Virus record (IMG/VR): IMGVR_UViG_3300045988_170943
Coordinates: 352,001 to 416,000 of that record
DNA: 64,000 nt
Source of the DNA: a virus
Direction: 5' to 3' (one strand)
Below are positions 74 through 47,385 of the stretch, in pieces. The notes beneath the pieces were generated by a model. The model was not told the DNA's origin. It saw only the letters and a program-made list of their open reading frames with translations, and made no database searches. The translations under genes and the position numbers were made by a program. Each line of letters opens with the position of its first letter. Within the stretch, counting starts at the first letter, position 1.

Positions 74-74
74 C

Positions 75-6504: not shown

Positions 6505-6577
6505 GCCGTTTTAGTTCAATTGGTAGAACGCCTGTCTTGTAAACAGGAGGTCATCGGTTCGATCCCGATAAGCGGCT
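6505..6577 (+). tRNA. tRNA-Thr (anticodon UGU)
   Basis: Acceptor gccgttt/aagcggc, D-arm gttcaattggtagaac, anticodon stem cctgt/acagg with loop ctTGTaa, T-arm atcgg-ttcgatc-ccgat. Confidence 0.75.
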
Positions 6578-8110: not shown

Positions 8111-8163
8111 CAAACAGTCAGGTAGGTGTGACACTATTCACACAATACGGCCCCTCCCAGGAG

Positions 8164-8193
8164 TTGACATTCGGGAGGGGCTGTTGATATATT
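8164..8193 (+). promoter_or_regulatory. sigma70-like promoter of tmRNA (TTGACA-18-TATATT)
   Basis: ttgaca at 8164-8169 and tatatt at 8188-8193, 13 nt upstream of the predicted mature tmRNA 5' end. A GC-rich hairpin lies just upstream. Confidence 0.5.
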
Positions 8194-8206
8194 AGAGTCA
8201 CGCCTT

Positions 8207-8582: not shown

Positions 8583-8789
8583 CTATCCAACCGGGGTGCC
8601 GCCAGTGAGTGATGAAACTGGCGGCACCCCGGCTTCCTGCATATGCTCATGCCAATACCACATTAGGTGGCTACCCCTATCCCAGTGTGTCCATACGTTC
8701 TATCTCCTGTAGCAGTCGATACACTATGAGGTAGCACCTGCCATAACCGATGCGGTACCCCATCACGGCGCCCTACCCTGAGGAGAATC

Positions 8790-10100: not shown

Positions 10101-11597
10101 ATGCCAGCAGTCAAGGATCAGTTCGTCTCCCTGCACATGCACTCCGACTACTCCCTACTGGACGGCTACGCCAAGCCAGGAGAGTACATCAACAGGGCTA
10201 TCGAACTTGGGCAGCCAGCCATTGGGCTCACAGATCACGGGAACCTTCATGGCATCAAGCAGTTCATTGACCAAACCAGGGACGCTGGCCTCACCCCAGT
10301 ACCCGGTTCCGAGTTCTACATGGCCCCCATCAGTGATGACGGACCATACCCCAAGCATCCTGTCTACTACGGTGAGGGTGGCCGCAAGAACCCTGAGCAT
10401 GACGTGTCCGCTAACGGGACCTACCTGCACCTAACTGTCTGGGCTTACAATGACGCCGGTTTGAGTAACCTGAAGCGCCTGTCCACGCTCGCCTATGCCC
10501 CAGAACGCTACTACCGGAAACCACGCATCGGGTTTGACGACCTGGCGGACCACTCAGACGGACTCATCGTATCCACGGGCTGCCCCTCATCAGAGATCAG
10601 CACCAGGTTACTCATGGGACAGGAGCAAGCAGCCTATGAGTACGCTGGGCGCATGAAGGAAGTGTTCAAGGACCAACTGTTCATGGAGATCATGAACCAT
10701 AACATGAGCATCGACCTTGAACGCAAACTACTGCCTCAGCAGATGCGTCTAGCGAAACGACTCAACCTCCCCCTACTGGCAACCAACGACTGCCACTACG
10801 CCAACTCCGGGGACGCCCAGGGACACAGTGAGATGCTTTGCATCCAGTCAAAGTCCCTCATGAGTGACAAGACCTATGATCAGGGCGGTAAACGGTTCGC
10901 GTTCAACGGCGACCAGTACTACATGAAGTCCGGGGCACAGATGGCGGCACTGTTCCCTGAAGATGACTATCCCGGCGCCCTGTCGAACACGCTACTGATC
11001 GCAGAGATGGCCTCAGACATTAGGATGGTGTTCGACCCCCACCTGAGGCCCGTCCCGTTTGTCCCTGAGGGCACCACGGTAGAGAAGCATCTCCAGCAGA
11101 TGATCAACGACGGATACAAGGCCAAGTATGTGAACCGTGACTACCCAAGCGTGGAGGAGCGCAAACGTGTCCTGAGTGAAGCAAAACGACGCATTCGTGA
11201 AGAGTGGGAGGTCATCTACTCGTCCGCGTTTGACGGGTACATGTTGGTCGTGGAGGACTATCTGAGATATATCCGGGAGAATTACTCGGTGCGAGGCGAG
11301 AACGGGGAGATCCTTGCATCTCCGTTGGGGCCGGGCCGCGGCAGTGTCGGCGGGTGCATCATCGCATACCTGCTGGGCATCTCTGAGATCGACCCTATTG
11401 AGTATGATCTCCTGTTCGAGCGTTTCCTGTCTCCTGGGCGTGGCGCTGTCTGTCGGGTCACTTATGATGACGGCACTACCGAGGACCTTGTGGTGTCCGA
11501 AACCAGAACTGTGCTGGGTGATGATGGTCAGGAGGTAGGCAGATACATTCACCAGATCAACATTGGGGATAAGGTTGTCATTGAAGAGGAGCACTAA
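10101..11597 (+). CDS. dnaE: DNA polymerase III alpha (DnaE)-like N-terminal fragment: PHP domain, truncated before the catalytic PDxDxDF motif, ending in a Cys-initiated Hint-like tail
   Basis: N-terminus VSLHMHSDYSLLDG is the PHP signature. NDCHYAN, GPGRGSVGG and LLFERFLSPGR align to DnaE. Where E. coli DnaE continues VSMPDFDVDF, this ORF reads CRVTYDDGTTEDLVV... (48 aa) and then stops, adjacent to tnpB. Confidence 0.7.
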   Translation: MPAVKDQFVSLHMHSDYSLLDGYAKPGEYINRAIELGQPAIGLTDHGNLHGIKQFIDQTRDAGLTPVPGSEFYMAPISDDGPYPKHPVYYGEGGRKNPEHDVSANGTYLHLTVWAYNDAGLSNLKRLSTLAYAPERYYRKPRIGFDDLADHSDGLIVSTGCPSSEISTRLLMGQEQAAYEYAGRMKEVFKDQLFMEIMNHNMSIDLERKLLPQQMRLAKRLNLPLLATNDCHYANSGDAQGHSEMLCIQSKSLMSDKTYDQGGKRFAFNGDQYYMKSGAQMAALFPEDDYPGALSNTLLIAEMASDIRMVFDPHLRPVPFVPEGTTVEKHLQQMINDGYKAKYVNRDYPSVEERKRVLSEAKRRIREEWEVIYSSAFDGYMLVVEDYLRYIRENYSVRGENGEILASPLGPGRGSVGGCIIAYLLGISEIDPIEYDLLFERFLSPGRGAVCRVTYDDGTTEDLVVSETRTVLGDDGQEVGRYIHQINIGDKVVIEEEH

Positions 11598-13300
11598 AAC
11601 CATCTGAGTACGTATGTGCCACTTCATCTGAACACCTCCCCCTACCTCCTGGAGCAACCGGACCCGTGACTTCTCACGTGTTATTGTGGTTACCATATAG
11701 GGTATGACTATTCCTTAGGATAAACCACATCTACTGTATTTGCAACAGATAGGTCCCTTGTTGGAATTGTCGTGCCGCTGGTTGTCTGAAACCACTCCCT
11801 GTGGTCCACCGCAGAAACCCTAGACTCTGCGGGGCACATCCTTACACTCACCTCCCTCGACTGAAAAGATGGGCGAGTGTGGGTCTTCTTCTGGTTCTGG
11901 GGTGCTTTAGGAGTAGGCCTGTTCTTCGTGCCAGGATGCCTCAGTGGCTTCACACGGCACTTGGATCTTCTGATGCGCTTGGTCTTTGTGGCGTGCCGTC
12001 TCCGTGTCTGGCACGCCTTCTTGACATTCACTCGCTGAGCGATGTTCGCCGCCGCGTTCAAGTCACGATGATGAGTGATGCCACAGGCCGTACAGCGCGG
12101 CTGAGAATAGTCCTGCATGTCCAGGTCAGACTGACACACATGACACCTTCGGGATGTGTGCGCGGCGTTGACCTTCAAGACGCGCCCGCCGTCAGCCTCA
12201 ACCATATCCCGAGTACGCCTGTGGACCTCGCCACGAAACCAGCGGCCGAACTTCATGGTGTTCTTGATGTGAGACAAGTCCTCAAAGGAGACGATGGCAT
12301 TGTCATAACGCCAGGCCGCGTCTGTGATCTCCTGAGCAACGAGGATGCTCAGTTCCTTACGCCGGTTAGACAAGTGACCCCTGTGTGATGCGGCCTCCTC
12401 AGGGCGGTTCTTCCTCTGCAAAGAGGAAACCTGAACCTGAGCCCTCTTAATCTTATTGTTCAAGGACCTGGCACGCTGCCCTAGAAGAGACTGATCAACA
12501 ACCTTTCTGCCCTTGGTATCCCAGACGACGTAAGTGGCCGGGTTAGTCACACCAACATCCACGCCAATAACATAGCGGCTAGAAAACTCGGGACGTCCAG
12601 GATTGGTCTTGCCATGAAAGCCAAACATCACGCGATTCTGATTATCGACCCATATGTCCGGCACGCCAGTCTCACAACCCTTTTCCAGTAATTGGGGTGG
12701 CGTTGGGAAGTGAAGAGTAGTCCATTGGCCTTGAACGACTAGATCCAGGATGATCTTGTCTTCCTGGACATGAATCCTTCTGTACTGGTTGTTTGTTGCA
12801 GAAAGAGAAAGGCGAGGTTGCAGGTCTTTTGGTTTAGAATCCTTGACTGTTCTCTTCCACCCGGCCGAAACATAACCATTATGCGTCCCGTTAGTGGCAT
12901 TGACTCGGGCGGCCCAGGATCTCAGTGTCGAGACCACTCGCTCACGAAACAGCATCTCCAACCGTGAGGCCCCACTCCTGAACCGATTCTTCACCTCACT
13001 GGGAAGAAACAGGCCCATACGCCTACCAGCCTCAGCGGGCTTGAACCTGTCGAAGTAGGTCACCAGGGCAAGATTCTGCTCAGTCAACTCCCGCAGAGCA
13101 TACTCGGCAACCAGTTCAGCATCCGCTCTGATGCCGTCCAGGACCTCATCAAGGTTCAGAGGATCACCAGTCTTACTGAACGCAGCATATGGTGTCCTTG
13201 GGTACGTACGCGACACAGTAGTTCTAGACACCTGGTGAGCCTCCCCCAAGAACTTGACTGGTTGATGGTATGCGTGTATTATAGCACAATATTAGTGGAG
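11550..13300 (-). mobile_element. IS200/IS605-family TnpB-only element (IS1341-like), approximate ends
   Basis: A 513-aa TnpB occupies almost the whole interval. An AT-rich promoter lies at 13250-13440. The predicted right end and omega-RNA region overlaps the 3' end of the DnaE fragment. Boundaries not resolved. Confidence 0.45.
11708..13249 (-). CDS. tnpB: TnpB (IS605 OrfB family, RuvC-like RNA-guided nuclease) with C-terminal zinc finger
   Basis: C-terminal CHVCQ...CTACGITHHRDLNAAANIA (RuvC-III plus Zn finger), preceded by the D...G.N and E motifs typical of TnpB. Confidence 0.8.
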   Translation of the reverse strand: MGEAHQVSRTTVSRTYPRTPYAAFSKTGDPLNLDEVLDGIRADAELVAEYALRELTEQNLALVTYFDRFKPAEAGRRMGLFLPSEVKNRFRSGASRLEMLFRERVVSTLRSWAARVNATNGTHNGYVSAGWKRTVKDSKPKDLQPRLSLSATNNQYRRIHVQEDKIILDLVVQGQWTTLHFPTPPQLLEKGCETGVPDIWVDNQNRVMFGFHGKTNPGRPEFSSRYVIGVDVGVTNPATYVVWDTKGRKVVDQSLLGQRARSLNNKIKRAQVQVSSLQRKNRPEEAASHRGHLSNRRKELSILVAQEITDAAWRYDNAIVSFEDLSHIKNTMKFGRWFRGEVHRRTRDMVEADGGRVLKVNAAHTSRRCHVCQSDLDMQDYSQPRCTACGITHHRDLNAAANIAQRVNVKKACQTRRRHATKTKRIRRSKCRVKPLRHPGTKNRPTPKAPQNQKKTHTRPSFQSREVSVRMCPAESRVSAVDHREWFQTTSGTTIPTRDLSVANTVDVVYPKE

Positions 13301-15534: not shown

Positions 15535-17523
15535 ATGAACCTTACCAGCGTGATCGACAACTACTGCGGCCATGACGAGAAGATCATGGACGAGAACGCA
15601 AACAAGGACAGCAAGGTGTTCGCCACCCAGAGAGACCTTCTGGCCGGGGCAATCAGCAAAGAGTACGCACTAGAGAAACTACTCCCCAAGAACGTCGCCG
15701 AAGCACACAAAAAAGGATGGATACACTTCCACGACCTAGACTACGTACTCAATGCCTCCGGGGGCCTGTTCAACTGTATGCTGATCGACTTCCCCGGAAT
15801 GCTCGCCCACGGGTTCACGCTAGGCAACGCGGAGATCGAACCACCCAAGTCCCTCCACACCGCCGGAGAGGTCATCCCCCAAATCGTTGCCAACGTGTCC
15901 AGCAATATGTACGGAGGTGTCTCTGCACACAGGATAGACGAGTTCCTGGAACCATATGCCATCCTGTCCTACCGGAAACACCTCTGCCGTAACCTCGCCA
16001 GAGCCGCCCAGTACACGGGAGTCACCATCACCCCAACCCAGGTGGCTGCCCTCGCCGAGCACTACGTACAGGCGTGCCCACAGACAGACAACGAGTTCAA
16101 GAACGACACCCCAGCCACCACCCCTGTGCCACCAGGGCAGTCCCCCTTACCCCTGGCGGCACAGGACATAGCCGTCAAGGACGCCATCAGCGACACCGGT
16201 AAGGAAGTCGCAGACACGTGCCAGTCATTGGAGTACGAGTGCATGGCACTCTTCAGTGGAAACGGACAAACCCCATTTTTCACCTTTAACCTGGGGTTGG
16301 GGACCGGCAAGTGGGCGCGCGAGATCCAGAAACACATCCTCAAAGTCAGGATCGAAGGACTCGGCCCTGAGAAACGCACCGCCGTCTTCCCGAAACTTGT
16401 CTACACCCTCAAGGAAAGCCACAACCTAAAACCAGGTGACCCCAACTATGACATCAAGAGACTAGCCGTAGAATGCTCCACCAAACGCATCTACCCTGAC
16501 ATCCTCTCCTATGAGAAAGTCATGGAAATCTATGGCACCTTTGTCTCCCCCATGGGGTGCAGGTCATTCCTCAGTGACTACCGGGACAAGGACGGCAACC
16601 ACGTCACCTATGGTCGTCGAAACATTGGGGTCGTCTCCCTCAACCTCCCCAACATCGCCCTCACTGTGAACACTCCCGACGAGTTCATGACCCTACTTGA
16701 TCAGCGTATCCAGGCGGTCAAGGACGGCCTCATGTACCGTTACAACAGGCTCGCCAGCACCACAGCCAGAAACGCGCCCATCCTCTACCAGTACGGGGCG
16801 ACCGGCCACAGGCTTAACTCCGATGAAACCGTGCAACGAATCTTCAATGACGGTGAAGCCACAGCATCCATTGGGTACGTTGGCCTCCACGAGACAGCAA
16901 CAAGATTCTGGGGTAACGACTGGCAGGACAACCCTGAAGCCAAGAACTTCACCATCCAGGTCCTCCGCCGCCTCAACCACTGGAAGGAAAAGTGGGCAGA
17001 AGAGACCGGTATAGCGTTCTCCGTCTACAGCACCCCAGCAGAATCACTCATCTCACGGTTCGCGGAAATCGACAAGGCAACCTTCGGCAGCATCAAGGAC
17101 ATCACAGACAAAGGCTACTACACCAACTCCTTCCACCTGGACGTCCGCAAGCAAGTCACGCCGTTCGAAAAAATCGACTTCGAGGCAGACTACCCGCCAC
17201 TAGCCGCTGGAGGAAACATCTGCTACGTAGAACAGCCATCCCTCATCAAAAACCCCGACGCCCTAGAAGCCATCTGGGACTACATGCACGACCGGGTTCC
17301 GTTCTCCGGTGTCAACACCCCCATCAGCCGATGCTACAAGTGCAACCACGAAGGAGACTTCGACGCTGACGCACGCGGATTCTACTGCCCCCAGTGCGGA
17401 AACCGCGATCCCCAGCAGTGCGAAGTTGTGGAACGGCTCTGCGGCTACCTCGGATCCGTGTCCATGCGTAAACCCATCAGCGGTCGCGTCAAGGAAATGA
17501 AATCCAGAGTCAAACACCAGTAA
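15535..17523 (+). CDS. nrdD: anaerobic ribonucleoside-triphosphate reductase NrdD (class III RNR)
   Basis: C-terminal glycyl-radical motif RLCGYLGS, preceded by the zinc ribbon CYKCNHEG...YCPQCG. Length 662 aa. RBS aggagg. Confidence 0.85.
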   Translation: MNLTSVIDNYCGHDEKIMDENANKDSKVFATQRDLLAGAISKEYALEKLLPKNVAEAHKKGWIHFHDLDYVLNASGGLFNCMLIDFPGMLAHGFTLGNAEIEPPKSLHTAGEVIPQIVANVSSNMYGGVSAHRIDEFLEPYAILSYRKHLCRNLARAAQYTGVTITPTQVAALAEHYVQACPQTDNEFKNDTPATTPVPPGQSPLPLAAQDIAVKDAISDTGKEVADTCQSLEYECMALFSGNGQTPFFTFNLGLGTGKWAREIQKHILKVRIEGLGPEKRTAVFPKLVYTLKESHNLKPGDPNYDIKRLAVECSTKRIYPDILSYEKVMEIYGTFVSPMGCRSFLSDYRDKDGNHVTYGRRNIGVVSLNLPNIALTVNTPDEFMTLLDQRIQAVKDGLMYRYNRLASTTARNAPILYQYGATGHRLNSDETVQRIFNDGEATASIGYVGLHETATRFWGNDWQDNPEAKNFTIQVLRRLNHWKEKWAEETGIAFSVYSTPAESLISRFAEIDKATFGSIKDITDKGYYTNSFHLDVRKQVTPFEKIDFEADYPPLAAGGNICYVEQPSLIKNPDALEAIWDYMHDRVPFSGVNTPISRCYKCNHEGDFDADARGFYCPQCGNRDPQQCEVVERLCGYLGSVSMRKPISGRVKEMKSRVKHQ

Positions 17524-17547
17524 AGCCCCCGACACAGCAACACGCGA

Positions 17548-17600
17548 GTGCGCCCCACCAGAATGCTATCAGGTTTCTGGGTGGGGCGCACTTATTCTCT
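17548..17600. terminator. bidirectional hairpin terminator between convergent nrdD and HNH genes
   Basis: 12-bp stem gtgcgccccacc/ggtggggcgcac with a 19-nt loop, followed by ttattctct. Confidence 0.5.
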
Positions 17601-17618
17601 GATCTGCAAACCTATAAG

Positions 17619-18632
17619 TCACCTCAGGGACTCCCGCAACTTCATGATCTGACTGTTATAGACACCCCGAATACGCCCAGAGGACCTTCGGTCATAGCGC
17701 CCATCTTCCCCAACCTCAAACTGTTTCATGAACCTGTTAATGTAGTCAATAGACTTCGACACCTTCTTAACCTGCTCAGGAGTCATCTCCTTATACAGGG
17801 CAAACCGGCGGAAACTCTCAATCCTTGACAGAACCTCATCCTTCTTATCCTCAGGGACCCTGCTGGTAGACTGCACCCACTCGTTCAAGTCCTTGTTACG
17901 TCGCTCACTGTTGCAGCCAATACACGCCAGGGCCATATTCCCGTAGCGAGTTGTGCCAGGAGGCGGATTCTTCGGGGTCACTGGTGTCAAATGCTCCCCG
18001 GATGCTGCATGCTCATTACCAACACCCGACTGAAACGGCTTGTGGCAGTAGCAGCAGCGGCCACCAAAGAACATAACCGAGGCAACATACCGCTCACGGG
18101 TCATGTCGTTCATCGCAGACGTCAAGATTATCCTTTGAGGCTGATGACGCCTACCATCATTGCGCCACTCAATTGAGGCCGTCATAGACTTGACGTTAGT
18201 AGCAATGATCCTTGAGAACTCCTTCAAATCGACATCATCACCAAGGAACTCCCTCGTCCTCCTGGCGATTGGATCCTTACTTGACAAGAAAGCGTAAATG
18301 TTTCCCTCCGCTCTCTGAAAACGCCTCTGGAGCCTAGGATCATTCAGCCTGTCCTCAAACTTGCTGTAGAAGTCCCGGATAAACGAATAGTCCTCATGAG
18401 AAAACTGCTCCGCCACAGACTCAACCGACTCATGGAACTCCTTCCGAGTCATGCTTCTACCGTAGTACGAGGACACCATGCCAGGAGTCGGTGTCGCCTT
18501 CTTCAAGGCCACCTCAGTGCTCTGCTCGCCTTCTTGCCGAGCCTTGTTCGTCGATGTCGCCAACGCGCCATGAGCCTTCGCCAGAACCTCCTCATTGAAC
18601 GCCCGGATCGTCGCATCACTAGCGTCACTCAT
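17619..18632 (-). CDS. HNH endonuclease-domain protein (free-standing, homing-endonuclease-like)
   Basis: His-Me finger: CCYCHKPF ... EHLTP ... GNMALACIGCNSERRNK. Start placed at internal Met (MSDASD). Confidence 0.55.
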   Translation of the reverse strand: MSDASDATIRAFNEEVLAKAHGALATSTNKARQEGEQSTEVALKKATPTPGMVSSYYGRSMTRKEFHESVESVAEQFSHEDYSFIRDFYSKFEDRLNDPRLQRRFQRAEGNIYAFLSSKDPIARRTREFLGDDVDLKEFSRIIATNVKSMTASIEWRNDGRRHQPQRIILTSAMNDMTRERYVASVMFFGGRCCYCHKPFQSGVGNEHAASGEHLTPVTPKNPPPGTTRYGNMALACIGCNSERRNKDLNEWVQSTSRVPEDKKDEVLSRIESFRRFALYKEMTPEQVKKVSKSIDYINRFMKQFEVGEDGRYDRRSSGRIRGVYNSQIMKLRESLR

Positions 18633-18973
18633 AATGTGCTGGCCGTGCTTACAGCGGCCCTTACCTACATTCTCCGGTTTCGCCCTGCACAAAGACAAGG
18701 TACCATCAGCGTTCTGCCCAAAACGACGCTCAACAGCCACCACGAACCACACTCCCACAAAATCTCAAACCAGCAAACCCTATCACCCTAGGAATAAAGC
18801 CAGCACACTGTACACGACAGTAAACATTCCTACAGGACATATCTAAAACCACTTGTCCAGAACCAGCCGGACAACACTCCAACAAGCGCCCCTAAGAACG
18901 ACAGGCACCAGAAGACCCAGAGTGTCACCCTTCTCATGCCACAAACCTAGAGCAACGGGCGCAAGGAAGGCCC

Positions 18974-20758
18974 CTACCGGTCCTTACGCCACACAAACGA
19001 GCGCACACCACAATCGAACACCTGCACATACCCCTCCATCTGAAGCACGTCAGCATTCGACACCCTAGAACCATCCTCACGAAACCTCGGATAACGCTCA
19101 CCCACCTCAAACCCCAACAGACGATCCGCACCCACACGCCTTGCAGCAGAATCTCGCACATACGCCGGACCCTCACCACCCACCACACGCACCCACATCG
19201 AGTTAGGCCGCCCCGTACGCTCAGCAACCCAACCCGCAAACATTGACTCCGTACGCCCAGTCCCCGTCGCCAAATCCACATACGACACCACCGACACCGG
19301 GTCCACCTCACGGAAAAACACGCTGTCACACCGGCTGAAACCACCCTGCACATGCCACCCCAGCCGCGAACACGACCGAATAGCCTCCCACTCCACATTA
19401 GACCTGAACCGGGCAGGACCATACGACTGCACATGCACCAAATCCCCCCTATAGGTCAGACCCACACAGAACGTCTGACCATTCGCCGCCCCCAACAAGT
19501 GATTCTCCCGGAAAAACCGGTTCGCATCCGCCTGAGACAACGACACAACCTCACACTCACGAGCCCCAACCGAATACGGGCAAACCCCCAACTTCGCCGC
19601 CACCATAGACGCAAAAATACCCTCATCCATCCAGTCAAAATACTGCATCAACGTCACCCCCGCAGACTCCGCCACAAGTGCACGCTCCTGATGGTGACGA
19701 GGCTCAACCGGCAGATGCCTCTTGCGTCCGCACGAACCAGACTCCACAAACTCTGTACACCTGCCCGTCGCATGAGCAAACGACACCGTACTATTATGCG
19801 AGAACGACGGGTTGACATCCACCAACACACCCCCACACCCAAGATCAGCACACCACACGCCGCCACCATCACCAGCAGACCCGAACGCCACCTCAGTATC
19901 AAACCGGTGCCCAGTGACCTCCTCCAAGCGGGCCTTCCACCCCAGATTCACCTTAGACACGCGCCCACCACTAGCAGCAGCACGCTTTTGAACCTCAGGC
20001 AACTGGAAGATGTTCTCAACCCCATACCTCTCCAACATCGTCACCCGGTTACGCTCCGCAAACCCAGGCGCAGTGAACACACACTCAGAACCATACCGCT
20101 CCAACACAGTAGCACGCCCCCTAGCCTGAACCTCTTTGCTCATCATCGGGCTGCGCACCCCAAACCGCTCCATGAACGTCCGCTCACGCTTAGCACGCAC
20201 CTCAGGAGACAACGAAGGATTCGTCACCCCATAGTGAGCCATCAAAGTCTCAGCCTTCTTCGCCTTCACCTCCTCCACCTGAGACACGTTCTTAACACCA
20301 TACCGCTCCATCACCGTCGCATCATGCTTACGCTGACGATCCTCATAGTCAATGAGCCCCCTGGAACACGCCTTCGAGCACGACAAGGAAGGCTGATACA
20401 CATCCACCTCAAACTCCTTCCCGCACACCACACAAGTACGATAATGCGGGCCAGGACAGTACTTCGCCGTACTCCGGTCAGCAGTGAACTCACGACCACA
20501 CCCATCAAACTGGCAAACACACTCCACCACAGGACGATGCGCACGATAATACACGCCAGAACACTTCTTAGAACAGAACCGCAAAATCTTGACCCCAGGC
20601 TTCCGCTGCAACACCTGCCCACCACAAACCTCACACTCAGTATAGTGCGGGCCAGGACAGAACCGGTTAGTCCTCATCTTCGGAGTGAACTCTTTACCAC
20701 AGAACTCACACTGGCGTACAGGCAGATCGACCACGGAACACACCCCAAAATCAACCAA
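18974..20758 (-). CDS. zinc-ribbon-repeat protein with tandem ERYGV-type repeats (putative homing-endonuclease-associated DNA-binding protein)
   Basis: Three copies of C..C-(~17)-C..C (CEFCGKEF...CEVCG) and at least five ~33-aa repeats (MERYGVKNVSQVEEVKAKK...). No catalytic motif recognised. Confidence 0.45.
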   Translation of the reverse strand: MVDFGVCSVVDLPVRQCEFCGKEFTPKMRTNRFCPGPHYTECEVCGGQVLQRKPGVKILRFCSKKCSGVYYRAHRPVVECVCQFDGCGREFTADRSTAKYCPGPHYRTCVVCGKEFEVDVYQPSLSCSKACSRGLIDYEDRQRKHDATVMERYGVKNVSQVEEVKAKKAETLMAHYGVTNPSLSPEVRAKRERTFMERFGVRSPMMSKEVQARGRATVLERYGSECVFTAPGFAERNRVTMLERYGVENIFQLPEVQKRAAASGGRVSKVNLGWKARLEEVTGHRFDTEVAFGSAGDGGGVWCADLGCGGVLVDVNPSFSHNSTVSFAHATGRCTEFVESGSCGRKRHLPVEPRHHQERALVAESAGVTLMQYFDWMDEGIFASMVAAKLGVCPYSVGARECEVVSLSQADANRFFRENHLLGAANGQTFCVGLTYRGDLVHVQSYGPARFRSNVEWEAIRSCSRLGWHVQGGFSRCDSVFFREVDPVSVVSYVDLATGTGRTESMFAGWVAERTGRPNSMWVRVVGGEGPAYVRDSAARRVGADRLLGFEVGERYPRFREDGSRVSNADVLQMEGYVQVFDCGVRSFVWRKDR

Positions 20759-20860
20759 CAGAAACTACCCAAGTATATCCGCGCACACCCCGGAAGTCAA
20801 GGGATATTCCACCGCAGACACCTCACCTACCACACCAAGACGGAAGAGGCAACACAACCA

Positions 20861-20980
20861 ATGCGCGTCACCTCCATCAAAAAGATAGACCCCAAGCCAT
20901 CACGCTGCATCGAAGTCACCGGAGAAGACCGACTTTTCGCAGCAGGAGGCCAAAACGGCCACTCCATCGTCTCCCACAAC
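20861..20980 (+). other. split intein C-terminal fragment (IntC, 40 aa) with Cys at block F position 4
   Basis: IEVTGEDRLFAA and SIVSHN with +1 Ser parallel gp41-1 (IDIEVSGNHLFYANDILTHN) and Npu DnaE IntC. F-block RCIEV resembles the WCLEV and QCIQV of the two class 3 inteins in this window. Confidence 0.6.
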
Positions 20981-21955
20981 AGCGTTACACAGCGCATCAT
21001 CATTAACAGCGTCATCATGCGCCCCGACAGGTGGCGACTCCTCGGCATCGACCTGAAAAAAGTCGAGTTATCGCGCTACCGCAAATACAGTAACGTCGTC
21101 CTCGGAGTAGCCACCGAGATGGAGGATGCCGTAACAATCCTCAAGTTCGCGCATCAGACCATGATGAAGCGTTACTCAGAGATGGAACAGTTGGGAATCA
21201 ACAACTTCGTCAACCTCCCTGAGCCTGGTTTTTCTCTCATGATCCTAGCCGACGAGATCGGTGAGCTCTTCGGGGCGTCTGGTAATAAATCCGATGAAGG
21301 CAAGGCTAAGGACGCGATGGCTAGCGAGTGTCAGTTCATCGCCGGATCTATTCTTCGTCTAGGCCGTGCTGCGGGTGTTCACATGATTCAGGCTACGCAG
21401 CGCCCTGACGCGAAGTTGATCCCTGGTGAGTCTAAGGCTAACCTGGCAGTTCGCATCAACTGTGGCCGCACAGATTCGACAGCCTCCAGCATGATTCTAG
21501 ACAATAGTGAGGGGACTCGCGTACGCGGCTACCCTCGTGGTCGCTTGTGGTTGCAGATTAATGGCGTGGGGAATCATGCTCAGGGGTTTTGGGCTGATGA
21601 GGACTGGTTGGATGAGTGGTTGGCGTCTAAGGGGCTGAATGCTGATGGTTCGCCTGTGGGTTCTGGGGGGCAGTCTCGTCTTGCTCATTTGGCGAATATG
21701 GGCGATTTTGATGGGACGGATTTGGATACTCAGTCGGGTGTGGATAATGCGTCTGTGATTGAGCGTATTCGTGAGGAGGATGAGTGGGGGTTTGATGATG
21801 AGGAGGGTGAGAGTGATCCTGCTCCAGCGTATGATGATGGCCCTATGGGGCGGCCTGAGTTGGGGTCTGTTGGTAAGGGTAGGGGGGATGCTGTGCGTGG
21901 TGATGGGGAGTGGGATCCGTTGATGCAGTTTGTTGCGGGCGAGAATAATGCCTGA
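20861..21955 (+). CDS. FtsK/SpoIIIE-family ATPase C-terminal half with N-terminal split-intein C-fragment (IntC); Walker A half absent from window
   Basis: Residues 41 onward align to FtsK immediately after the P-loop: IDLKKVEL; Walker B FSLMILADEIG; GVHMIQATQRP; arginine-finger region. The first 40 aa, MRVTSIKKIDPKPSRCIEVTGEDRLFAAGGQNGHSIVSHN followed by S, match IntC of split inteins (blocks F and G, terminal HN). Confidence 0.65.
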   Translation: MRVTSIKKIDPKPSRCIEVTGEDRLFAAGGQNGHSIVSHNSVTQRIIINSVIMRPDRWRLLGIDLKKVELSRYRKYSNVVLGVATEMEDAVTILKFAHQTMMKRYSEMEQLGINNFVNLPEPGFSLMILADEIGELFGASGNKSDEGKAKDAMASECQFIAGSILRLGRAAGVHMIQATQRPDAKLIPGESKANLAVRINCGRTDSTASSMILDNSEGTRVRGYPRGRLWLQINGVGNHAQGFWADEDWLDEWLASKGLNADGSPVGSGGQSRLAHLANMGDFDGTDLDTQSGVDNASVIERIREEDEWGFDDEEGESDPAPAYDDGPMGRPELGSVGKGRGDAVRGDGEWDPLMQFVAGENNA

Positions 21956-22191
21956 GTTATTTGTGGTGGTCTAGAGCTTTGCCTGAGGTAGTGCCTGTCG
22001 GCTTGTGGGGCGTGTTCTATAGGCTGGCGGGCGCCTTCCTTTCGCCTTGAGTGTGTAGGGTGCGTCTTCTGGGGTGTAGGTGCGCGCGGCTGCCATCAAG
22101 GGTCGCGGGGTGTCTGTGATTCTGGCCAGGGGTTGGGGTGTTTGTGTGTCTGGTGGCGGTTTTCCTTCCCCTTTGCTTGTGTTGCTCCTTG

Positions 22192-22220
22192 TTGACTTTG
22201 TGGTGGTTTGATGGTAGTGT
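22192..22220 (+). promoter_or_regulatory. sigma70-like promoter (TTGACT-17-TAGTGT)
   Basis: Located in the GT-rich intergenic region upstream of the Cas4-like gene. Confidence 0.35.
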
Positions 22221-22287
22221 GTTGGGCGGTTTAGTGTAGTGTGCGCCCTGTCTTGGCGTGCTGGCTTGGAGGTTTGTGGTGTCTGAG

Positions 22288-24243
22288 ATGTTGCAGGGGC
22301 CGTTGTTTGAGCAGGGTCTTGTTGCGATGACTGATGCGGGTCTGCGTATTGAGGATGAGGAGATCAGTGCGGCGTTTGACCGTAAGTCGTTGAGCCCGTC
22401 ACTGGTGTCGTCTGTTGTGGATGAGAATGCGTGTATGGCTCGTATGCTGGCTTCGTCGTTTGTGGTTGATCGACTGGTGACGCCTCCGGTGGATACGGAT
22501 GCGTCTAGGGGGTCGATGTTTCATAAGGTGATGGAGGAGTTTTTCTCTCTTCCTCCTGAGGGGCGCACGAATGAGGGTATGAATCAGGCGTTCCGGGAGG
22601 TGTTGGCGTCGGATAAGTTCAGGGACCTTGGGGGCATCCCGGATGCGCGGGACTGGCTTGTGCGGGCTGTTCAGGGCTATTTCAAGATGGGGTCTAAGCC
22701 TGATAGGGTGCGGGTGGCTGAACTGGATGTGGGGCATGGTGCGCGCCCTGGCCTTGAGGTTTTTGTGAAGGGGCAGATTGGTGCAGCGTCTCGCCCTACT
22801 TTGGGGTTTGTTGACCGCGTGACTGTGGACCCTAGGGATGGTAAGTCTTTGGTGGTGGAAGACTATAAGGGGCTGGCTCTGGATACTCCGATCCCTACTC
22901 CTTATGGCTGGTCAACAATGGGAAGTCTCAGGGTGGGGGATTTTGTGTTGGGGACGACTGGGGCCTGTAGGGTGACGGTGAAGTCGAGTGTGCATTATGG
23001 TCGGCCTTGCTTCCGGGTGGGGACTGCTGATGGTGGGGCCTTGGTGGCGGATAATGTGCACTTGTGGTATGTGGCTCTCGTTCCGCCGGGAGGTTTTGGT
23101 GGTGGCGTGGTTGAGTATGCGGTCATCAGCACTGAGCGTATGGCTGAGTTTGTGCGTGCAGGATACCTGGTGTTTGTTCCTTCCCCTGACCCGTGGGAGC
23201 CTAAGGCTACTGTTGGCGGTGGCACTGTGAACAGTGTTAGTGGCGGCAGTGTTGACGGTGGGCGCTCTGTGGGGTTCTACTATGGCATGTCGCTGGGGCT
23301 CATGGACAGTGGTAACCTTGACCGGTATATTCAGGCTCACGGCAGTGCGGGCGGCGAGTTCTCCATGATTGAGGTGGCGGACCGTGCACTGGCTGGCACC
23401 ATGGATAACATTTTCGTGATCCCAGCCAATATACGGCGGGACATCATTGACGGCATTATTCACGTGTCCACCATAGAGGCGCCAGCGGACACTCCAGCAG
23501 GGTTGCGTGGTTTCAGGTGGCTGCGGTTCAATGAGTCACCTGACGGGCCTAAGGCTATTTCCACGATCCTTCTTGATCTCATGTACTTGTCTGGGATGTC
23601 CCCCATGCGCGTATTCGACCGCTCCCTAGATGACGGTAGGGGTGTGACTGAGATTGTGGTACGGGACGACCTGTACGCGCACCCACTAGGCATGGAACCT
23701 GGCTGGTGCATGGATGATGGCCTGGACGGTGGCTGGCGTGAGATCACCGTGGTTGAGGCTGTTGACTCTGTGCCCACCCAGTGCATCCAGGTGGACTCCC
23801 CCGACAGCCTCTATCTTGCTGGGCGCACCATGATCACCACACACAACACGGGCAAGGTGAAGAGGTGGAAACCAAACACGAAGGGCGACAAGGGTCTGGC
23901 TGAGCAGCGGCAGCAGACCATCTACTCAATGCTTCTGGAACAGCACGGATTCGAGGTGTCAGCAGCCAGACTCATCTACCCCGTCTATGGCGAGATCGTG
24001 AACGTCAACAAGAATGACGAATGGCTACGCAACCGGGTCGTGGAAGACATTGAACGGGCCGACGTCCTCATGAAGGCGTGCCGGGACGAGAACCTGTTCG
24101 AGTACTCACCATCATTCCTTTGCGCATGGTGCCCGCTAGCAAAACTGTGCCCCGTCGCAGACATCAAAGGCGGAAAATGCCAGGTAGCCTTCCAGAAGCA
24201 GCCAGAGCCAGAACAACTACTTGCGGGGATCAAGATTCGATGA
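22288..24243 (+). CDS. Cas4/RecB-family PD-(D/E)XK nuclease with 4Fe-4S cysteines, interrupted by a class 3 intein
   Basis: Exteins carry GFVDRVTVD (motif II), VVEDYK-TGK (motif III, restored after removing the insert), QQTIY (Q..Y) and C-terminal CAWCPLAKLCP plus an N-terminal Cys. Start is probably ATG 22288 (RBS ggagg). The ORF track starts at GTG 22258. Confidence 0.65.
   Translation: MLQGPLFEQGLVAMTDAGLRIEDEEISAAFDRKSLSPSLVSSVVDENACMARMLASSFVVDRLVTPPVDTDASRGSMFHKVMEEFFSLPPEGRTNEGMNQAFREVLASDKFRDLGGIPDARDWLVRAVQGYFKMGSKPDRVRVAELDVGHGARPGLEVFVKGQIGAASRPTLGFVDRVTVDPRDGKSLVVEDYKGLALDTPIPTPYGWSTMGSLRVGDFVLGTTGACRVTVKSSVHYGRPCFRVGTADGGALVADNVHLWYVALVPPGGFGGGVVEYAVISTERMAEFVRAGYLVFVPSPDPWEPKATVGGGTVNSVSGGSVDGGRSVGFYYGMSLGLMDSGNLDRYIQAHGSAGGEFSMIEVADRALAGTMDNIFVIPANIRRDIIDGIIHVSTIEAPADTPAGLRGFRWLRFNESPDGPKAISTILLDLMYLSGMSPMRVFDRSLDDGRGVTEIVVRDDLYAHPLGMEPGWCMDDGLDGGWREITVVEAVDSVPTQCIQVDSPDSLYLAGRTMITTHNTGKVKRWKPNTKGDKGLAEQRQQTIYSMLLEQHGFEVSAARLIYPVYGEIVNVNKNDEWLRNRVVEDIERADVLMKACRDENLFEYSPSFLCAWCPLAKLCPVADIKGGKCQVAFQKQPEPEQLLAGIKIR
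22870..23847 (+). other. class 3 intein (326 aa, WCT signature, Gly at position 1)
   Basis: Block A GLALDTPI; block B ADNVHLW (Trp at B12); block F TQCIQVDSPDSLYLAG (Cys at F4); block G MITTHN with +1 Thr (Thr at G5). Confidence 0.65.
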
Positions 24244-25089: not shown

Positions 25090-26619
25090 CTAGGTTGGAG
25101 ATCCTCTAGAATCTAGGGTTTCCCTCACCATCATCAGCGTCGCCTCGGTTTTTCTTTCCGAGGTACCAGTGTGTCCCTGGATTCCACTCAGGGCAGTGAC
25201 CGGTTTCGACTGTCGCGTAACAGTCGAACTTCGCTCTAGCGCCCTCTGGCGAAGCAGAGAACGCATTCTATCACGGTTTCTCGTGCTTGAGATAGCACGC
25301 AAGGCAATCTCTCTAGATGCCGAGATGTCACGATCCAGTGAGAAACCACAGGTAGTGCAGGTACCGACCCTACTCTTCGAGTTGTTCGATACCTTACCAC
25401 CGCAGCGAGAGCAGGTCTTTGAGGTGTTCTTGGCGCTCACCTTGGTTACTTTAATCCCGTAGCGCTTAGCAGTTTTCTCTATCCTGTGCTGTATCTCAGC
25501 ATGAGGCCACCTACCACCCAAAGCGTCAAGCCAGGACAGGTTCTCCAGAGACAGATGAGCATCGCTCTTATTAGCGATTTCCACTACCTGGCTGGCGATA
25601 CACTGACTGATCTCATGCTTTATCCTGGTAGCCTTAGCACCGACTCGCTTCGCCTCAGTCCTGAGAATCTGAGCACGCTGGGCTCGGTTGTATCTCTCAC
25701 AGAGGTCCGCTCGTTCGTACAGATGAGCAGATAAATCACGACGTTTCTTCTCTGCCCTAACTAGAGAACCGAGCCACCTCTTGTAACTAACGTAATACGG
25801 AGCAGACCTGTACTTAGCCTCAGGATCTATGACGGTAGTGACGAACGGCTCTACCTTACCCAGGTCAACGCCTACAATCTTGTTGGTGTCTCGCTGATGC
25901 ACCTTGCGCTCGATAGCGATGTCAAAGACAACCTGGCCCTTGTCGTTCAGTCTGATAGTTGGGCGACATACCTTACCATCACCAAAGCGTGACTCATTAT
26001 CTGGAAGTCTGAAGTAGAGTCTAGTAAGACCGTTACTTGGCGTCTTGACCTGAACGATGACACTCAACGGATCGCTGTCGTCTCGAACTGCCTTAGGTGC
26101 GAAGTAGGTGTCACACACAGCCAGGTTCAGTTTGGCGTTCACTCCAGGTAGAGACGCCTTCCTCTCGCCTTTGACGTGATAGCGCCTCAGGTGAGCGCGG
26201 ATCATTCCACTGGTCGGCTGCGGAGCATCAGGATAAGCGACCTTGTAGCAGGAGAGGATCTTTTCTGGCTTGGTCTCCTTAGGGTGAGTGTTCATTACCT
26301 GAAACAGGCCAACTGAGACAGCATAAGACTCTAGAGCGCCAACTATATTGGTGATCAGCATCTCATTCATGTTGTGCTTCTGAAACTCAAAGTCGTAACG
26401 ACTAAGGCGTTTACGACCCCAGGAGTTCAGAGAACCGGTCGGCCTGCCACCCCGTAGAACTTTCACTGCCAGGTCATGAAACTCTGAACCGGCAAGCACC
26501 TCCTGCTCAGCCTGAGCCATCCAAGCAACCATCTGAGCCAGATCAGCACTCACTGAGTCAGCGTCAACTCCATCGTCAGTGGTGAACCTGTGCCTAGTCA
26601 CAGCGTCATAGTACTTCAC
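25090..26619 (-). CDS. tnpB: TnpB (IS605 OrfB family) second, divergent copy
   Basis: VGVDLG (RuvC-I) and SKTCSRCGG...CTTCGFSLDRDISASREIALRA (RuvC-III plus zinc finger). Confidence 0.8.
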   Translation of the reverse strand: MKYYDAVTRHRFTTDDGVDADSVSADLAQMVAWMAQAEQEVLAGSEFHDLAVKVLRGGRPTGSLNSWGRKRLSRYDFEFQKHNMNEMLITNIVGALESYAVSVGLFQVMNTHPKETKPEKILSCYKVAYPDAPQPTSGMIRAHLRRYHVKGERKASLPGVNAKLNLAVCDTYFAPKAVRDDSDPLSVIVQVKTPSNGLTRLYFRLPDNESRFGDGKVCRPTIRLNDKGQVVFDIAIERKVHQRDTNKIVGVDLGKVEPFVTTVIDPEAKYRSAPYYVSYKRWLGSLVRAEKKRRDLSAHLYERADLCERYNRAQRAQILRTEAKRVGAKATRIKHEISQCIASQVVEIANKSDAHLSLENLSWLDALGGRWPHAEIQHRIEKTAKRYGIKVTKVSAKNTSKTCSRCGGKVSNNSKSRVGTCTTCGFSLDRDISASREIALRAISSTRNRDRMRSLLRQRALERSSTVTRQSKPVTALSGIQGHTGTSERKTEATLMMVRETLDSRGSPT

Positions 26620-44523: not shown

Positions 44524-47385
44524 CTATGCGATAGTGATCTTGTCCTTACCCAGTAGACCCTTGAAGTATACGAGGTCGGCGGCGTGCCTCATACCCTCCT
44601 CCACAGTGCACCTCCCCTGCTCTACAGCATTAACGATCTGCCGCTCAATAGTCAGGTCATTGTCGCGCATATAGTCCTCAATGCCGTGGTCGTCGCCCGC
44701 GCCGATCATTTCCTGTACTTCACGAGTAATCTCAAGGACAGAGAACAGGGCGAACCGGCTCTTACCGTCAACAGTCTTCAAGAGTTCCTGGTTAGCGAGC
44801 CCACGAATGTTTGTCTGAAGCGTTGACAGTATACGCCTCTGATCCTCACCATCATACAGCGACTTGATACGGTTCAACGTGACGGCAGGCGTGTTTGAGT
44901 GGATCGTCGTCATCGTGAGGTGCCCTGACTCGGCTGCACGAAGAAACTCGTCAACCTCTTCCTGGTCTCGAACCTCACCCACCAGAATCGTGTCCGGGTC
45001 CTCACGCATAGCAGCCTTCAGCGCGTTCGAGAACGAGTGTGTGTCACTGCCCACCTCACGTGGAGTCAGCAAAGTAATGCCATCGTCAGGGTAGATGTAC
45101 TCGATGGGCTTCTCAATAGTGACGATCCTCTGGTTACTGTTCTTCTGAAGGTTACGGATCAGAGATGCGAACGTTGTCGTGTTATGGGTTGGCACATAGT
45201 CCCTTGTGCACAGGAACAGGTGTGACGGGGAGTCCACCTCAAGGCACCAGAACTCCGACTGGGAGGCGTGCACCTCCTCCATGTACTCGATCTCAACAAT
45301 GTTCCCCCCGTCTATTGTGGCGCTTGCGTGCGAGCCTCTAAAGTCATCGTTCAGGTAATCCCGCACACCAGTAATGCTCAAACGGTCACCCATAGTCTCA
45401 GTGGCGTGCATCCCCAGTGAGCGAGCCACACGAGCCACACCCTCCCTGTGCTCATCATCCGGGATGCTGACTGTCGTGTCGCTGGAGTCTGCTGGCCCCT
45501 GAACCAGTAGTGCCCCCAACAGCATCAGCCGATCCGACACGCTCCAGGAGACCGCCTCAGCAAGAACCTCACGTACCCCATCCTGCCCCTCTGTAAGGCC
45601 CGTGACAGCGGCCGCAAGCGCCACTGGCAACACGGTAGGGGCGGGGGGCTCAGGTACCTCCACAGGCCCCCTGAGTCCCCTGATAACGGGGTTGTAGCCG
45701 AACCTCTGGCACACCTCGAACATTTGCTGCGTCGTCACCGTGCGCGGCCCCTCAACGCGGCCCATCAGTGATTCCTGGGAGTGCAACTCCAGCAGGTGGG
45801 CGCACGACTTACCGACCAGGATCCCGTCACCAGTGTCACGGAACGTCCGAGAAAGAACACCAGCCACCATGTCTGCCATGTCGCCCGTGAGCCCAGCCCG
45901 GCGGGTGATCTCGTGGGCAGGCAGCCGTTCACCGTCTCTGGCAGCAACAACCATGTCCAGGAGGGCAGCAACAGACCTCTTCGGCAGGATGATACGGCAG
46001 TAATTGTCACAAGGGAACTCCGCGACCCACAGGTGGTTCCCCCCAGCCAGGACAGTCTCACTAAGGCCACGGAACTTGATGTGGAAGAACCTCTCCGACC
46101 CTCCGGGGTGCTTTCTCACCACTTTGCATGTGCTGCCGTTCTCGTCATACACGATGTCACCGACCTGCACGTCCCCAAGCCTGATGAACCCGCCAGGATA
46201 GTTCGGGCCAGGTATCAACGTGTCCTCGTGAAGATCCTTACCGGAGCCAGTAATACCCCCCAGGATGATGCCGCCCTTACCGAACTTCGTCCACTCAATC
46301 AGGCGCGGGTCCACGTTCAGTTCCTCAGGAGACGGGATGACATCACTGATGATACGGAACGTCATAGCATTGTGCCCAAGAGTGCGCGCAACATTCAACC
46401 TGGTGCGCCTCCCCGCGTGCATACTGGAACGCAACTCATAAGAGGTGTCCAGTTCCCAGTGCTCATGATAGTCAGTCTGGTTATCCTTGGTGACAATGTC
46501 CATGAAGATACGGCTCGTGACATCATAGGGGATAGGCCCGAACTTCTCGTCGCGCACAATGTCTCCATTGACCCTGTACGCGATACGCTTGTCTGGGTCG
46601 ATATGGACGTCAGAAGCACCCATGTCGATACCTTGTGCGATTACGGCGTCGATGTCGAAGCCTTTAAACGGATCCTCTTCCGCCTCCTCCTCTTCAATGC
46701 CGATCCCGTCTATGACGTCAAGAACCCCATCCAATGGGTCATCGTCATAATCGTCGTCATAGTCCTCATCATCGTACCCGGCGTAAGGGTCCTCATACTC
46801 TGGATACTCATCATCCATAGGGGAGAACGGGTCCTCATCCTCCCCGTCAACACTCCCCTCACTGGTGTCGCCCGCGTCCATGTTGTCACTGTCAGCAGCA
46901 ATGTCTGCACTGACGGCAACATAGTCTGCGTCACCATAGAGATCACCGTCACCACTACTTGCAGACAGGCCGCTAGCAGCCCCCAGGGCCTCAGGAGCAC
47001 TACCTGCACTGTACTCAGAAACACCAAAATCTGTGACCGGTTCATCACCGTCAGCACCCAAACTAGCGTTCACAGGATCATCATAGTCGCCGTCGAGCAC
47101 GCCATCATACTCAACACCTTCGTCGCTATCGCCCCACAGGCGCTCACTGTACCCATTATCTGGAACCTGGGTGGGCGCGTTCATATAGTCGGCGTCAACA
47201 GGTGTCGTTACCACGTCATCCTCGCCCGGCTCATCATAGCCGCCAGGAATAGTAGTCTCCTCCATGTGCGGCTGCGTGACCGGGGCGGCATGACCGGGCA
47301 CATACTCATCATCCCCGTCACCCTGAAGGAACGGGTTGTAGTCCTCATCCCAGGCCTCAGCAGTAAGGTCAATACGGTCAGACAT
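44524..47385 (-). CDS. PilT/PilU-like secretion ATPase with acidic N-terminal extension, interrupted in its P-loop by a class 3 intein
   Basis: Exteins carry ASDVHIDP...RVNGDI (PilT N-terminus), GGITGSGK joined to TTTFASLI (Walker A restored), RIVTIEKPIEY, EDPDTILVGEVRD and AAESGHLTMTTIHSN. An Asp/Glu-rich N-terminal region of about 250 aa precedes these. Confidence 0.7.
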   Translation of the reverse strand: MSDRIDLTAEAWDEDYNPFLQGDGDDEYVPGHAAPVTQPHMEETTIPGGYDEPGEDDVVTTPVDADYMNAPTQVPDNGYSERLWGDSDEGVEYDGVLDGDYDDPVNASLGADGDEPVTDFGVSEYSAGSAPEALGAASGLSASSGDGDLYGDADYVAVSADIAADSDNMDAGDTSEGSVDGEDEDPFSPMDDEYPEYEDPYAGYDDEDYDDDYDDDPLDGVLDVIDGIGIEEEEAEEDPFKGFDIDAVIAQGIDMGASDVHIDPDKRIAYRVNGDIVRDEKFGPIPYDVTSRIFMDIVTKDNQTDYHEHWELDTSYELRSSMHAGRRTRLNVARTLGHNAMTFRIISDVIPSPEELNVDPRLIEWTKFGKGGIILGGITGSGKDLHEDTLIPGPNYPGGFIRLGDVQVGDIVYDENGSTCKVVRKHPGGSERFFHIKFRGLSETVLAGGNHLWVAEFPCDNYCRIILPKRSVAALLDMVVAARDGERLPAHEITRRAGLTGDMADMVAGVLSRTFRDTGDGILVGKSCAHLLELHSQESLMGRVEGPRTVTTQQMFEVCQRFGYNPVIRGLRGPVEVPEPPAPTVLPVALAAAVTGLTEGQDGVREVLAEAVSWSVSDRLMLLGALLVQGPADSSDTTVSIPDDEHREGVARVARSLGMHATETMGDRLSITGVRDYLNDDFRGSHASATIDGGNIVEIEYMEEVHASQSEFWCLEVDSPSHLFLCTRDYVPTHNTTTFASLIRNLQKNSNQRIVTIEKPIEYIYPDDGITLLTPREVGSDTHSFSNALKAAMREDPDTILVGEVRDQEEVDEFLRAAESGHLTMTTIHSNTPAVTLNRIKSLYDGEDQRRILSTLQTNIRGLANQELLKTVDGKSRFALFSVLEITREVQEMIGAGDDHGIEDYMRDNDLTIERQIVNAVEQGRCTVEEGMRHAADLVYFKGLLGKDKITIA
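45181..46236 (-). other. class 3 intein (352 aa, WCT signature, Asp at position 1, large central insert)
   Basis: Block A DLHEDTLI (GAT codon verified on the reverse complement); block B GGNHLW (Trp at B12); block F EFWCLEVDSPSHLFLC (Cys at F4); block G YVPTHN with +1 Thr (Thr at G5). A central ~200 aa may be a degenerate endonuclease. Confidence 0.65.

Follow-up and report, generated by a model that had tools for sequence, protein, structure and literature searches.

The subject of this analysis is an open reading frame (ORF) of 364 residues, located at 20861..21955 on the plus strand of a 64,000-nucleotide stretch of viral DNA (IMG/VR record IMGVR_UViG_3300045988_170943, positions 352,001 to 416,000), the whole of which is referred to here as the window. 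The ORF opens with MRVTSIKKIDPKPSRCIEVTGEDRLFAAGGQNGHSIVSHN/SVTQRIII..., where the slash, here and below, marks a splice junction as expected of an intein. Its first 40 residues resemble the C-terminal fragment of a split intein (IntC) and the remainder resembles the ATPase of FtsK/TcpA-like translocases. The gene and its immediate surroundings are arranged as follows:

20861..20980, plus strand: IntC of 40 codons containing blocks F and G; it has an ATG of its own and the purine-rich stretch GGAAGAGG upstream.
20981..21955, plus strand: C-extein, an FtsK/TcpA-like ATPase from the Walker A Ser41 to the stop codon (Pfam PF01580, PDB and BLASTP).
21991..22034, plus strand: terminator-like hairpin just past the stop codon (pattern match only).
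20759..20860, no strand assigned: divergent intergenic region of 102 bp between the endonuclease-like gene and the IntC gene.
18974..20758, minus strand: free-standing homing-endonuclease-like gene, 594 residues by longest ORF (DUF7487, 2.9e-22; phrog_3339 'homing endonuclease', 1.5e-47).
17619..18758, minus strand: HNH endonuclease-like gene, 379 residues (HNH PHROGs down to 2.8e-10; Pfam HNH 0.0074, below cut-off).

Judged by its residues and profile matches, the leader is a genuine intein C-fragment comprising blocks F and G, as a preliminary description of this DNA had proposed. It follows the pattern ...SRCIEV..DRLFAAGG...IVSHN/S, in which Cys16 (20906-20908) occupies position 4 of block F (F4), His39 (20975-20977) and Asn40 (20978-20980) form the terminal His-Asn pair and a Ser follows as the +1 nucleophile. 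A hidden Markov model (HMM) built from 105 leaders of the family matches the C-terminal ends of both complete inteins of the window, with E-values of 1e-7 for the nuclease at 22258..24243 and 6e-3 for the PilT-like protein at 44524..47385. The leaders-only profile also matches the class 3 DnaB inteins 6rix (3.6e-4) and 6bs8 (7.6e-4) over the full length of their last 36 residues, and the profile check that had been proposed for the leader did, in this form, find similarity to the Hint fold. When the C-terminal ends of the unsplit inteins are combined with the leader profile, the match to solved inteins reaches an E-value of 3.8e-9. The closest solved structures are M. smegmatis DnaBi1 (6bs8/6own) and M. 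chimaera DnaB1 (6rix/6riy), whose ends, ...P.RCVEVDNP.HLYLAG..MVPTHN, are the 36 residues that align with the leader profile; unlike the window gene, these class 3 DnaB mini-inteins are uninterrupted, splice in cis and reside in a helicase. The IntC heads an ORF of its own, beginning at the ATG at 20861, and no N-terminal splicing region is present in the ORF or upstream of it in frame, which is the arrangement of a split intein. The view of the leader as an ordinary N-terminal domain was considered and rejected.

The extein is of the FtsK family, in agreement with the earlier assignment: the Pfam scan matches PF01580 (FtsK_SpoIIIE) from residue 41, equivalent to profile position 53, with an E-value of 2e-12 and a score of 47.4 bits against a curated cut-off of 24, the PHROGs label of the ORF is FtsK/SpoIIIE-like, and both the Walker B motif (LMILADE, with D131 and E132, at approximately 21239-21256) and ATQRPD (residues 178-183, 21392-21409) are found. 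After ATQRPD the extein ends in an acidic and poorly conserved tail. The best solved relatives of the extein in the PDB search are the TcpA coupling protein (6o1x/6o1z, 9e-13) and FtsK (2ius, 3e-12). Walker A is incomplete: a regular-expression search for G..G.GK returned nothing in the ORF or in the in-frame stretch upstream, and of GxxGxGK[ST] the polypeptide encodes only the final Ser. The extein had been described as starting one residue after the P-loop; this needs correction, as unsplit relatives place the junction within Walker A, at GK/S. Given that these relatives align as GPAGAGKS followed by IVERS (P0095) and as GTTGSGK/intein/SVTQR (P0121, P0134), the break, on this alignment, falls inside the P-loop between the Lys and the Ser, and Ser41 (position +1, 20981-20983) is the Walker A Ser itself.

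The unsplit relatives with a complete intein were returned by a HMMER search with a profile covering the columns of the intein N-fragment (IntN) and of FtsK in P0086, which recovered mostly FtsK relatives, including the unsplit alleles and the 'middle pieces' described below. FtsK-like proteins of 1,200-1,800 residues (P0121, P0123, P0134, P0138 and others) follow the pattern ...FPH.L.AGTTGSGK/(L or M)...GW.T.G...GD...HLW...LAGLIDADG...P.RC[IL].VDS..R.FL.G....THN/SV.QR.... In BLASTP, window residues 3-255 are colinear with residues 894-1147 of P0134 (45% identity, 9e-73) and window residues 3-193 with residues 856-1041 of P0121, and both alignments cross the C-terminal splice junction ...THN/SV.QR into the C-extein. 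Given this colinearity through the junction, the leader is by homology the counterpart of the C-terminal ~38 residues of a class 3 intein set between the Lys and the Ser of Walker A, and the split point is, on the same comparison, where the unsplit alleles hold their endonuclease domain. The unsplit proteins (P0121, P0134, P0138 and others) share with the window gene the extein family (45-47% identity), the insertion point and a homologous intein C-end, and differ from it in being single polypeptides with an intact intein that has kept its endonuclease. Their N-terminal domain contains several hydrophobic segments that are predicted to span the membrane, which fits the membrane-anchored N-terminus of TcpA-like coupling proteins. 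P0121 derives from a 311-kb contig that carries WhiB.

The F4 Cys places the leader, as far as its sequence can, with the class 3 inteins, the class to which the nearest solved structures and the unsplit alleles belong. In the alignment Cys16 falls on the F4 Cys of both 6rix and 6bs8, and a Cys is found at this position in all 102 of the 102 family leaders compared. The first residue of the unsplit allelic inteins is L, A, M, R, Q, E, K or N, and these inteins contain HLW; by homology alone, the partner IntN would then be expected to have no nucleophile at position 1 and a Trp at position 12 of block B. The suggestion that this Cys is of the class 3 type is upheld. The accompanying remark, to the effect that there was no known natural example of a class 3 split intein, was already out of date: AceL NrdHF, published by Hoffmann et al. 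in 2020, is the first reported natural case, before which there was no split example among 1,701 class 3 inteins in nr (PMC7891396).

The arrangement is not peculiar to the window. Among the 120 best homologues, 110 open with a leader ending [ST]HN/[STC] and none of these 110 contains a Walker A motif; the sole Walker A carrier of the 120 is the distant, unsplit P0095. At least 110 homologue clusters, down to ~50% identity, have an intact leader-led ORF, and many of these homologues come from phage contigs of 300-680 kb. Across the family, identity is 58-59% in the leader, 64-72% in the ATPase core and 26-37% in the acidic tail. Given that the leader is conserved almost as well as the core, and that the F4 Cys is invariant, purifying selection appears to act on a working splicing element. 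At least 10 assemblies of this ~390-424 kb human oral phage, made independently of one another (ENA, Logan and IMG/VR), show the same layout, which is therefore not an accident of assembly; contigs of this phage include ENA ERZ28634345 scaffold_4 (423,643 bp) and IMGVR_UViG_3300008363_000089; among GenBank phages (INPHARED) there is no close relative. The leaders of P0103 and P0106 end TRN/S and not [ST]HN/S, the penultimate His being replaced by Arg, and these leaders may splice in an altered manner or not at all.

The interpretation we favour, and regard as probable, is that a ~400-kb oral phage has a naturally split gene for a membrane-associated FtsK/TcpA-like DNA translocase, of which this ORF encodes the C-terminal half and another place in the genome the N-terminal half. 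According to this interpretation, Walker A would ancestrally have been occupied, at GxxGxGK/S, by a class 3 intein that carried a LAGLIDADG endonuclease; in this phage clade the intein would have been broken at the former endonuclease domain, leaving the 40-residue IntC at the head of the C-extein. The N-half, encoded elsewhere, would be expected to comprise an N-terminal domain, beta-1, GxxGxGK and then an IntN with blocks A and B. IntC and IntN would assemble into a Hint fold, Cys16 would attack the N-terminal splice junction to give a branched thioester, the N-extein would be transferred to the hydroxyl of Ser41, cyclisation of Asn40 would release the intein and an O-to-N shift would yield ...GK-S-VTQR..., and only then would there be a complete P-loop and an active ATPase. 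Both splicing and the use of class 3 chemistry for it are what the established chemistry of class 3 inteins, taken with the sequence, would predict.

Several observations weigh against this interpretation. As a single query against the PDB the window leader is not significant (E-value 0.18), and its block G5 residue is Ser38 (SHN) in place of the Thr of class 3 inteins; among 105 family leaders this position is Thr in 58 and Ser in 47, and deviations at block G5 occur in 4.6% of class 3 inteins (PMC7891396). The remaining points concern the partner, which was sought in six frames with HMMs of the IntN (from 17 family inteins), of the N-extein (from unsplit relatives) and of whole N-halves (from allelic unsplit inteins). 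In the window these match only the N-terminal parts of the two complete inteins, the regular expressions G..G.GK and [AG]....GK combined with an open frame gave no N-half, and Pfam finds FtsK_SpoIIIE in only 1 of the 58 window ORFs and hence no second FtsK piece, which bears out the preliminary description in its statement that the window holds no N-extein/IntN partner. Two weak HMM matches, at 54379-54951 and 41621-42520, were inspected and are not Hint regions. The N-half was likewise not found in ~79 kb of the same genome, including 6-9 kb past each end of the window as read from a 418,686-bp contig of the same phage (ENA ERZ27262911 k119_16908), in which the window corresponds to about 280.8-344.8 kb, and the search that had been proposed for the rest of the genome, for an ORF with Walker A followed by a Hint N-fragment, thus returned nothing in the part covered. 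In the related loci fetched there is no N-half within 10 kb of the gene, and protein-database searches with allelic N-halves gave only bacterial FtsK fragments and unrelated proteins. Scans of IMG/VR with N-half, IntN, P-loop and N-extein patterns did not have the N-half among the matches listed; nor, when the DUF7487 family was included, were C-half contigs among the matches listed, with the exception of the nuclease intein. Given that these database searches relied on word indexing and lists of the best 80 matches, the failure to find the N-half there is weak negative evidence. The absence of an N-half from the window, from the ~79 kb of genome and from the vicinity of the gene in relatives indicates that the halves appear to be unlinked, with the N-half >20 kb upstream or >42 kb downstream in window coordinates. 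Because the IntN partner was not found, we infer both the existence of the N-half and trans-splicing.

Given that no partner was found anywhere covered, and that the locus is surrounded by mobile genes (the two endonuclease-like genes and nearby TnpB genes), it is possible that the N-half was lost in an endonuclease-driven rearrangement and that the IntC-led ORF is a decaying, non-functional relic. However, this is improbable for two reasons: first, the ORF is intact in all of the clusters counted above, despite their divergence. Second, the leader and its catalytic residues are kept almost like the core while the tail drifts, and a relic would be expected to lose Cys16, the His-Asn pair and the +1 Ser. 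A second explanation, to which we also attach little probability, is that there is no splicing and that the intein pieces act as a non-covalent docking module, or that the C-half without a P-loop acts as a subunit or regulator. Fragmented phage enzymes joined by domains derived from mobile elements are known (T4-like NrdA, PMC3045599), and the loss of the penultimate His in the TRN/S leaders would be compatible with docking; the F4 Cys, the terminal Asn and the +1 Ser are nevertheless invariant or nearly so, and it is difficult to see how Walker A could bind nucleotide with a non-covalent nick and some 140 additional residues inside it.

It is very unlikely that the C-half is spliced to an N-extein and IntN not dedicated to it, such as a host FtsK precursor or another P-loop protein of the phage, for example the PilT-like protein at 44524..47385. 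Actinobacterial FtsK fragments with class 3 inteins at GK/ALALDTP... were recovered, the PilT-like ATPase of the window carries a complete intein (GSGK/...THN/T) and no dedicated N-half was found, all of which this explanation could accommodate; yet complete inteins should, by established intein behaviour, already have excised themselves in cis by the time an IntC from outside could compete with them, and a chimeric core of ~30% identical proteins would be unlikely to fold. Finally, a sequencing or assembly artefact or a missed frameshift hiding an uninterrupted gene, suggested by a plus frame that stays open upstream to 19352, is effectively refuted, given that this frame is the antisense of the intact 594-residue endonuclease-like gene and is without Walker A or Hint motifs, and that the same structure recurs in many independent assemblies and in distant relatives; a contiguous Walker A upstream in frame, the finding that would have pointed to such an error, was looked for and is not there.

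The reading of the window gene as one half of a split gene can be compared with relatives in which the gene is divided further. In many of these a 'middle piece' consists of an IntC (IntC1), an extein running to ...SGVK and a second IntN (IntN2) that starts with Ala and has the block B Trp; the partner of IntN2 is an IntC2 (...YCISVDSP.KQFL...THN/T, with the F4 Cys) followed by the rest of the ATPase. The SGVK/T halves lie 5.6-8 kb apart in the related loci L029, L376 and L378, and the genes found between them across relatives are unrelated ones (NrdD, gyrase, nuclease or TnpB); for this clade it is therefore normal that the pieces of a split intein lie scattered. As complete natural pairs with class 3 sequence features, the SGVK/T inteins support, by analogy, the reading of the window gene. 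The pieces are located as follows:

L376, 10001-10813 and 17132-17887, and L378, 297-1091 and 6693-7343: three-piece gene with halves 5.6-6.3 kb apart.
L050, 6138-7040 and 10001-10957, and L029, 866-1825 and 10016-11068: gene in at least four pieces with three split sites, on a 419,707-bp IMG/VR contig.

The genes called in the gap at L376 are Rce1-like, TnpB, nuclease and GyrB, with no endonuclease-like gene among them. At L029/L050 a four-residue extein, CGGP, lies between two P-loop inteins (CGGP+TGGGKS), one split is atypical in having a short IntN and block B (HLW) inside an 87-residue IntC, and large opposite-strand endonuclease-like genes precede every IntC-led piece. It is conceivable, albeit doubtful, that this reflects a clade-wide habit in which huge phages assemble a membrane-anchored FtsK/TcpA-like DNA translocase out of separately encoded, unlinked polypeptides, numbering from two to at least four, which class 3-type split inteins that do not cross-react would join one after another by trans-splicing. 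On that reading the P-loop would be complete only after ligation, and separate expression of the pieces could serve to time or place the activation of the motor.

Natural split inteins have been known since 1998 and fractured genes since 2009. The cyanobacterial DnaE split intein (Ssp/Npu) is a cellular class 1 intein (Cys1) that is not known to have an adjacent endonuclease gene; the two parts of an essential enzyme come from genes far apart and are joined by trans-splicing, the split being ancient and fixed in the clade. The window arrangement resembles this dispersed dnaE-n/dnaE-c of cyanobacteria. The split inteins gp41-1, gp41-8, NrdJ-1 and IMPDH-1 of fractured genes start with a nucleophile (class 1). 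They resemble the window leader in having an IntC of ~40 residues ending HN/S (Dassa et al. 2009, PMC2677866). In the fractured genes of that study the N-half, an endonuclease gene and the C-half are adjacent (PMC2677866). The comparison with fractured genes in the preliminary description stands in part: free-standing endonuclease-like genes do adjoin the split point (18974..20758 and 17619..18758, both on the minus strand), whereas NrdD, and not the N-half, lies across them, and there is no N-half in the 20.8 kb upstream, the 42 kb downstream or the 6-9 kb extensions. Given that the halves are apparently unlinked, this is not a classic fractured gene. The window endonuclease-like gene is moreover of the DUF7487 type and could not be tied to the Vsr-like family.

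Split inteins and fractured genes are established in the literature, as is one natural split intein of class 3 (PMC2677866, PMC7891396). This last one, AceL NrdHF (PMC7891396), shares with the window gene a phage-like metagenomic source, a break at the point where the endonuclease is inserted, a short IntC (48 residues, as against 40 in the window gene), the block F Cys and an adjoining free-standing endonuclease gene. It differs in that its extein is a ribonucleotide reductase beta subunit, the two halves lie on either side of a single GIY-YIG gene in a 12-kb contig and its MCT triplet is atypical, the two conserved His being absent; the window gene, known from sequence alone, combines an FtsK/TcpA-like extein and a typical class 3-type sequence (RC[IL]xV...[TS]HN) with no partner at the locus. 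The literature searched yielded no paper that describes a split intein in an FtsK-like gene or in a huge phage. The novelty lies in the nature of the extein, in a canonical sequence of the class 3 type, in a split that is fixed throughout the clade, in halves that are unlinked and in relatives with more than two pieces. If the interpretation is correct, class 3 split inteins would be a large natural family and not a single curiosity represented by AceL NrdHF, a family with a conserved canonical class 3 sequence and several split sites in one gene, and might offer protein engineers a set of ligation tools, possibly orthogonal to one another, in which an internal Cys takes the place of the Cys1 nucleophile. 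Furthermore, an essential-looking translocase of ~400-680 kb phages, from the human oral and other metagenomes, would need post-translational assembly from distant loci, and the phage might either simply tolerate the split or exploit it for regulation.

Other inteins and split genes were observed in the window and in further viral contigs. A PD-(D/E)XK (Cas4-like) nuclease at 22258-24243 on the plus strand contains a class 3-like intein, YKG/LALDTPIPTP...HLW...QCIQVDSPDSLYLAG..THN/T, the C-terminal end of which is the closest relative of the split leader in the window. The PilT/T2SSE-like ATPase at 44524-47385 on the minus strand (953 residues) is interrupted by a complete class 3-like intein at the Walker A position that the split one occupies, GITGSGK/DLHEDTLIP...HLW...FWCLEV...THN/TTTF, and class 3-like inteins at P-loop GK/ sites are present in many unrelated viral contigs. 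At L037 (9875-10783), on a 290-kb viral contig, a distant FtsK-like gene has a different IntC (...PDGTIFHN/SGKSV) and is split two residues earlier in the P-loop. At L222 (4554-5162), on an unrelated 33.7-kb viral contig, an ORF ends with the P-loop SSAQVGK followed by a class 3-like IntN (ALALDTPLPTPTGWTTMG...) whose stop codon lies 29 residues past block B; this ORF is probably another natural class 3-type split intein. The DnaE of the window is represented by its N-terminal part only (the PHP domain and the start of pol III alpha, 10101-11597, plus strand), followed by TnpB at 11708-13249 on the minus strand; the rest of DnaE is not in the window and no intein signal was seen. At L376, DnaE consists of two ORFs flanking a clamp-loader gene, and DnaE may be another split replication gene.

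The two endonuclease-like genes that had been noted upstream on the opposite strand are supported by their Pfam and PHROGs matches, and NrdD (15535..17523) sits on the far side of both. The product of 18974..20758 contains Zn-ribbon repeats, DUF7487 'KYGV' repeats and a C-terminal domain common to phage homing endonucleases. A DUF7487 gene occupies the same divergent position beside the C-half in relatives of 56-65% identity (L005, L007/L008) and is absent from the L376 locus. The 594-residue protein has no solved homologue in the PDB, and it is for this reason that no tie to the Vsr-like I-Bth0305I family was drawn. The product of 17619..18758 matches Cas9 HNH domains weakly. Within the intergenic region a sigma-70-like match at 20800-20772 on the minus strand faces the endonuclease-like gene (a consensus match only, function not implied). 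Composition is strongly skewed at 16000-24000 and 50000-62000 of the window, where GC skew ranges from -0.34 to +0.50 and AT skew reaches -0.59, switching with the strand; such skews give rise to long spurious antisense ORFs, for example 19352..21955.

Divergent TnpB (Cas12f1-like) genes with ~26% mutual identity are found at 25090-26619 and 11708-13249, both on the minus strand, and at L290 6940-9112, and one TnpB is paired with a serine resolvase (IS607-like) just to the right of the window. A search for repeated 14-mers returned only tRNA arms. Between 35239 and 44077 on the plus strand lies a Tad/Flp-pilus-like and Tcp-conjugation-like cluster, with two T2SSF genes, a T2SSE/CpaF-like ATPase, TcpE, AAA_10 (VirB4-like, 40381-41586), RcpC/CpaB and a ParA/CpaE-like gene; together with the TcpA-like match of the split ATPase, this cluster hints at a DNA-transfer apparatus. 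The first part of the window (1-8583) encodes thirteen tRNA genes and a tmRNA (8207-8583, tag ANSDNFALAA), and just to the left of the window (L372) lie genes for Ro60/TROVE, a CCA-adding enzyme and GIY-YIG endonucleases.

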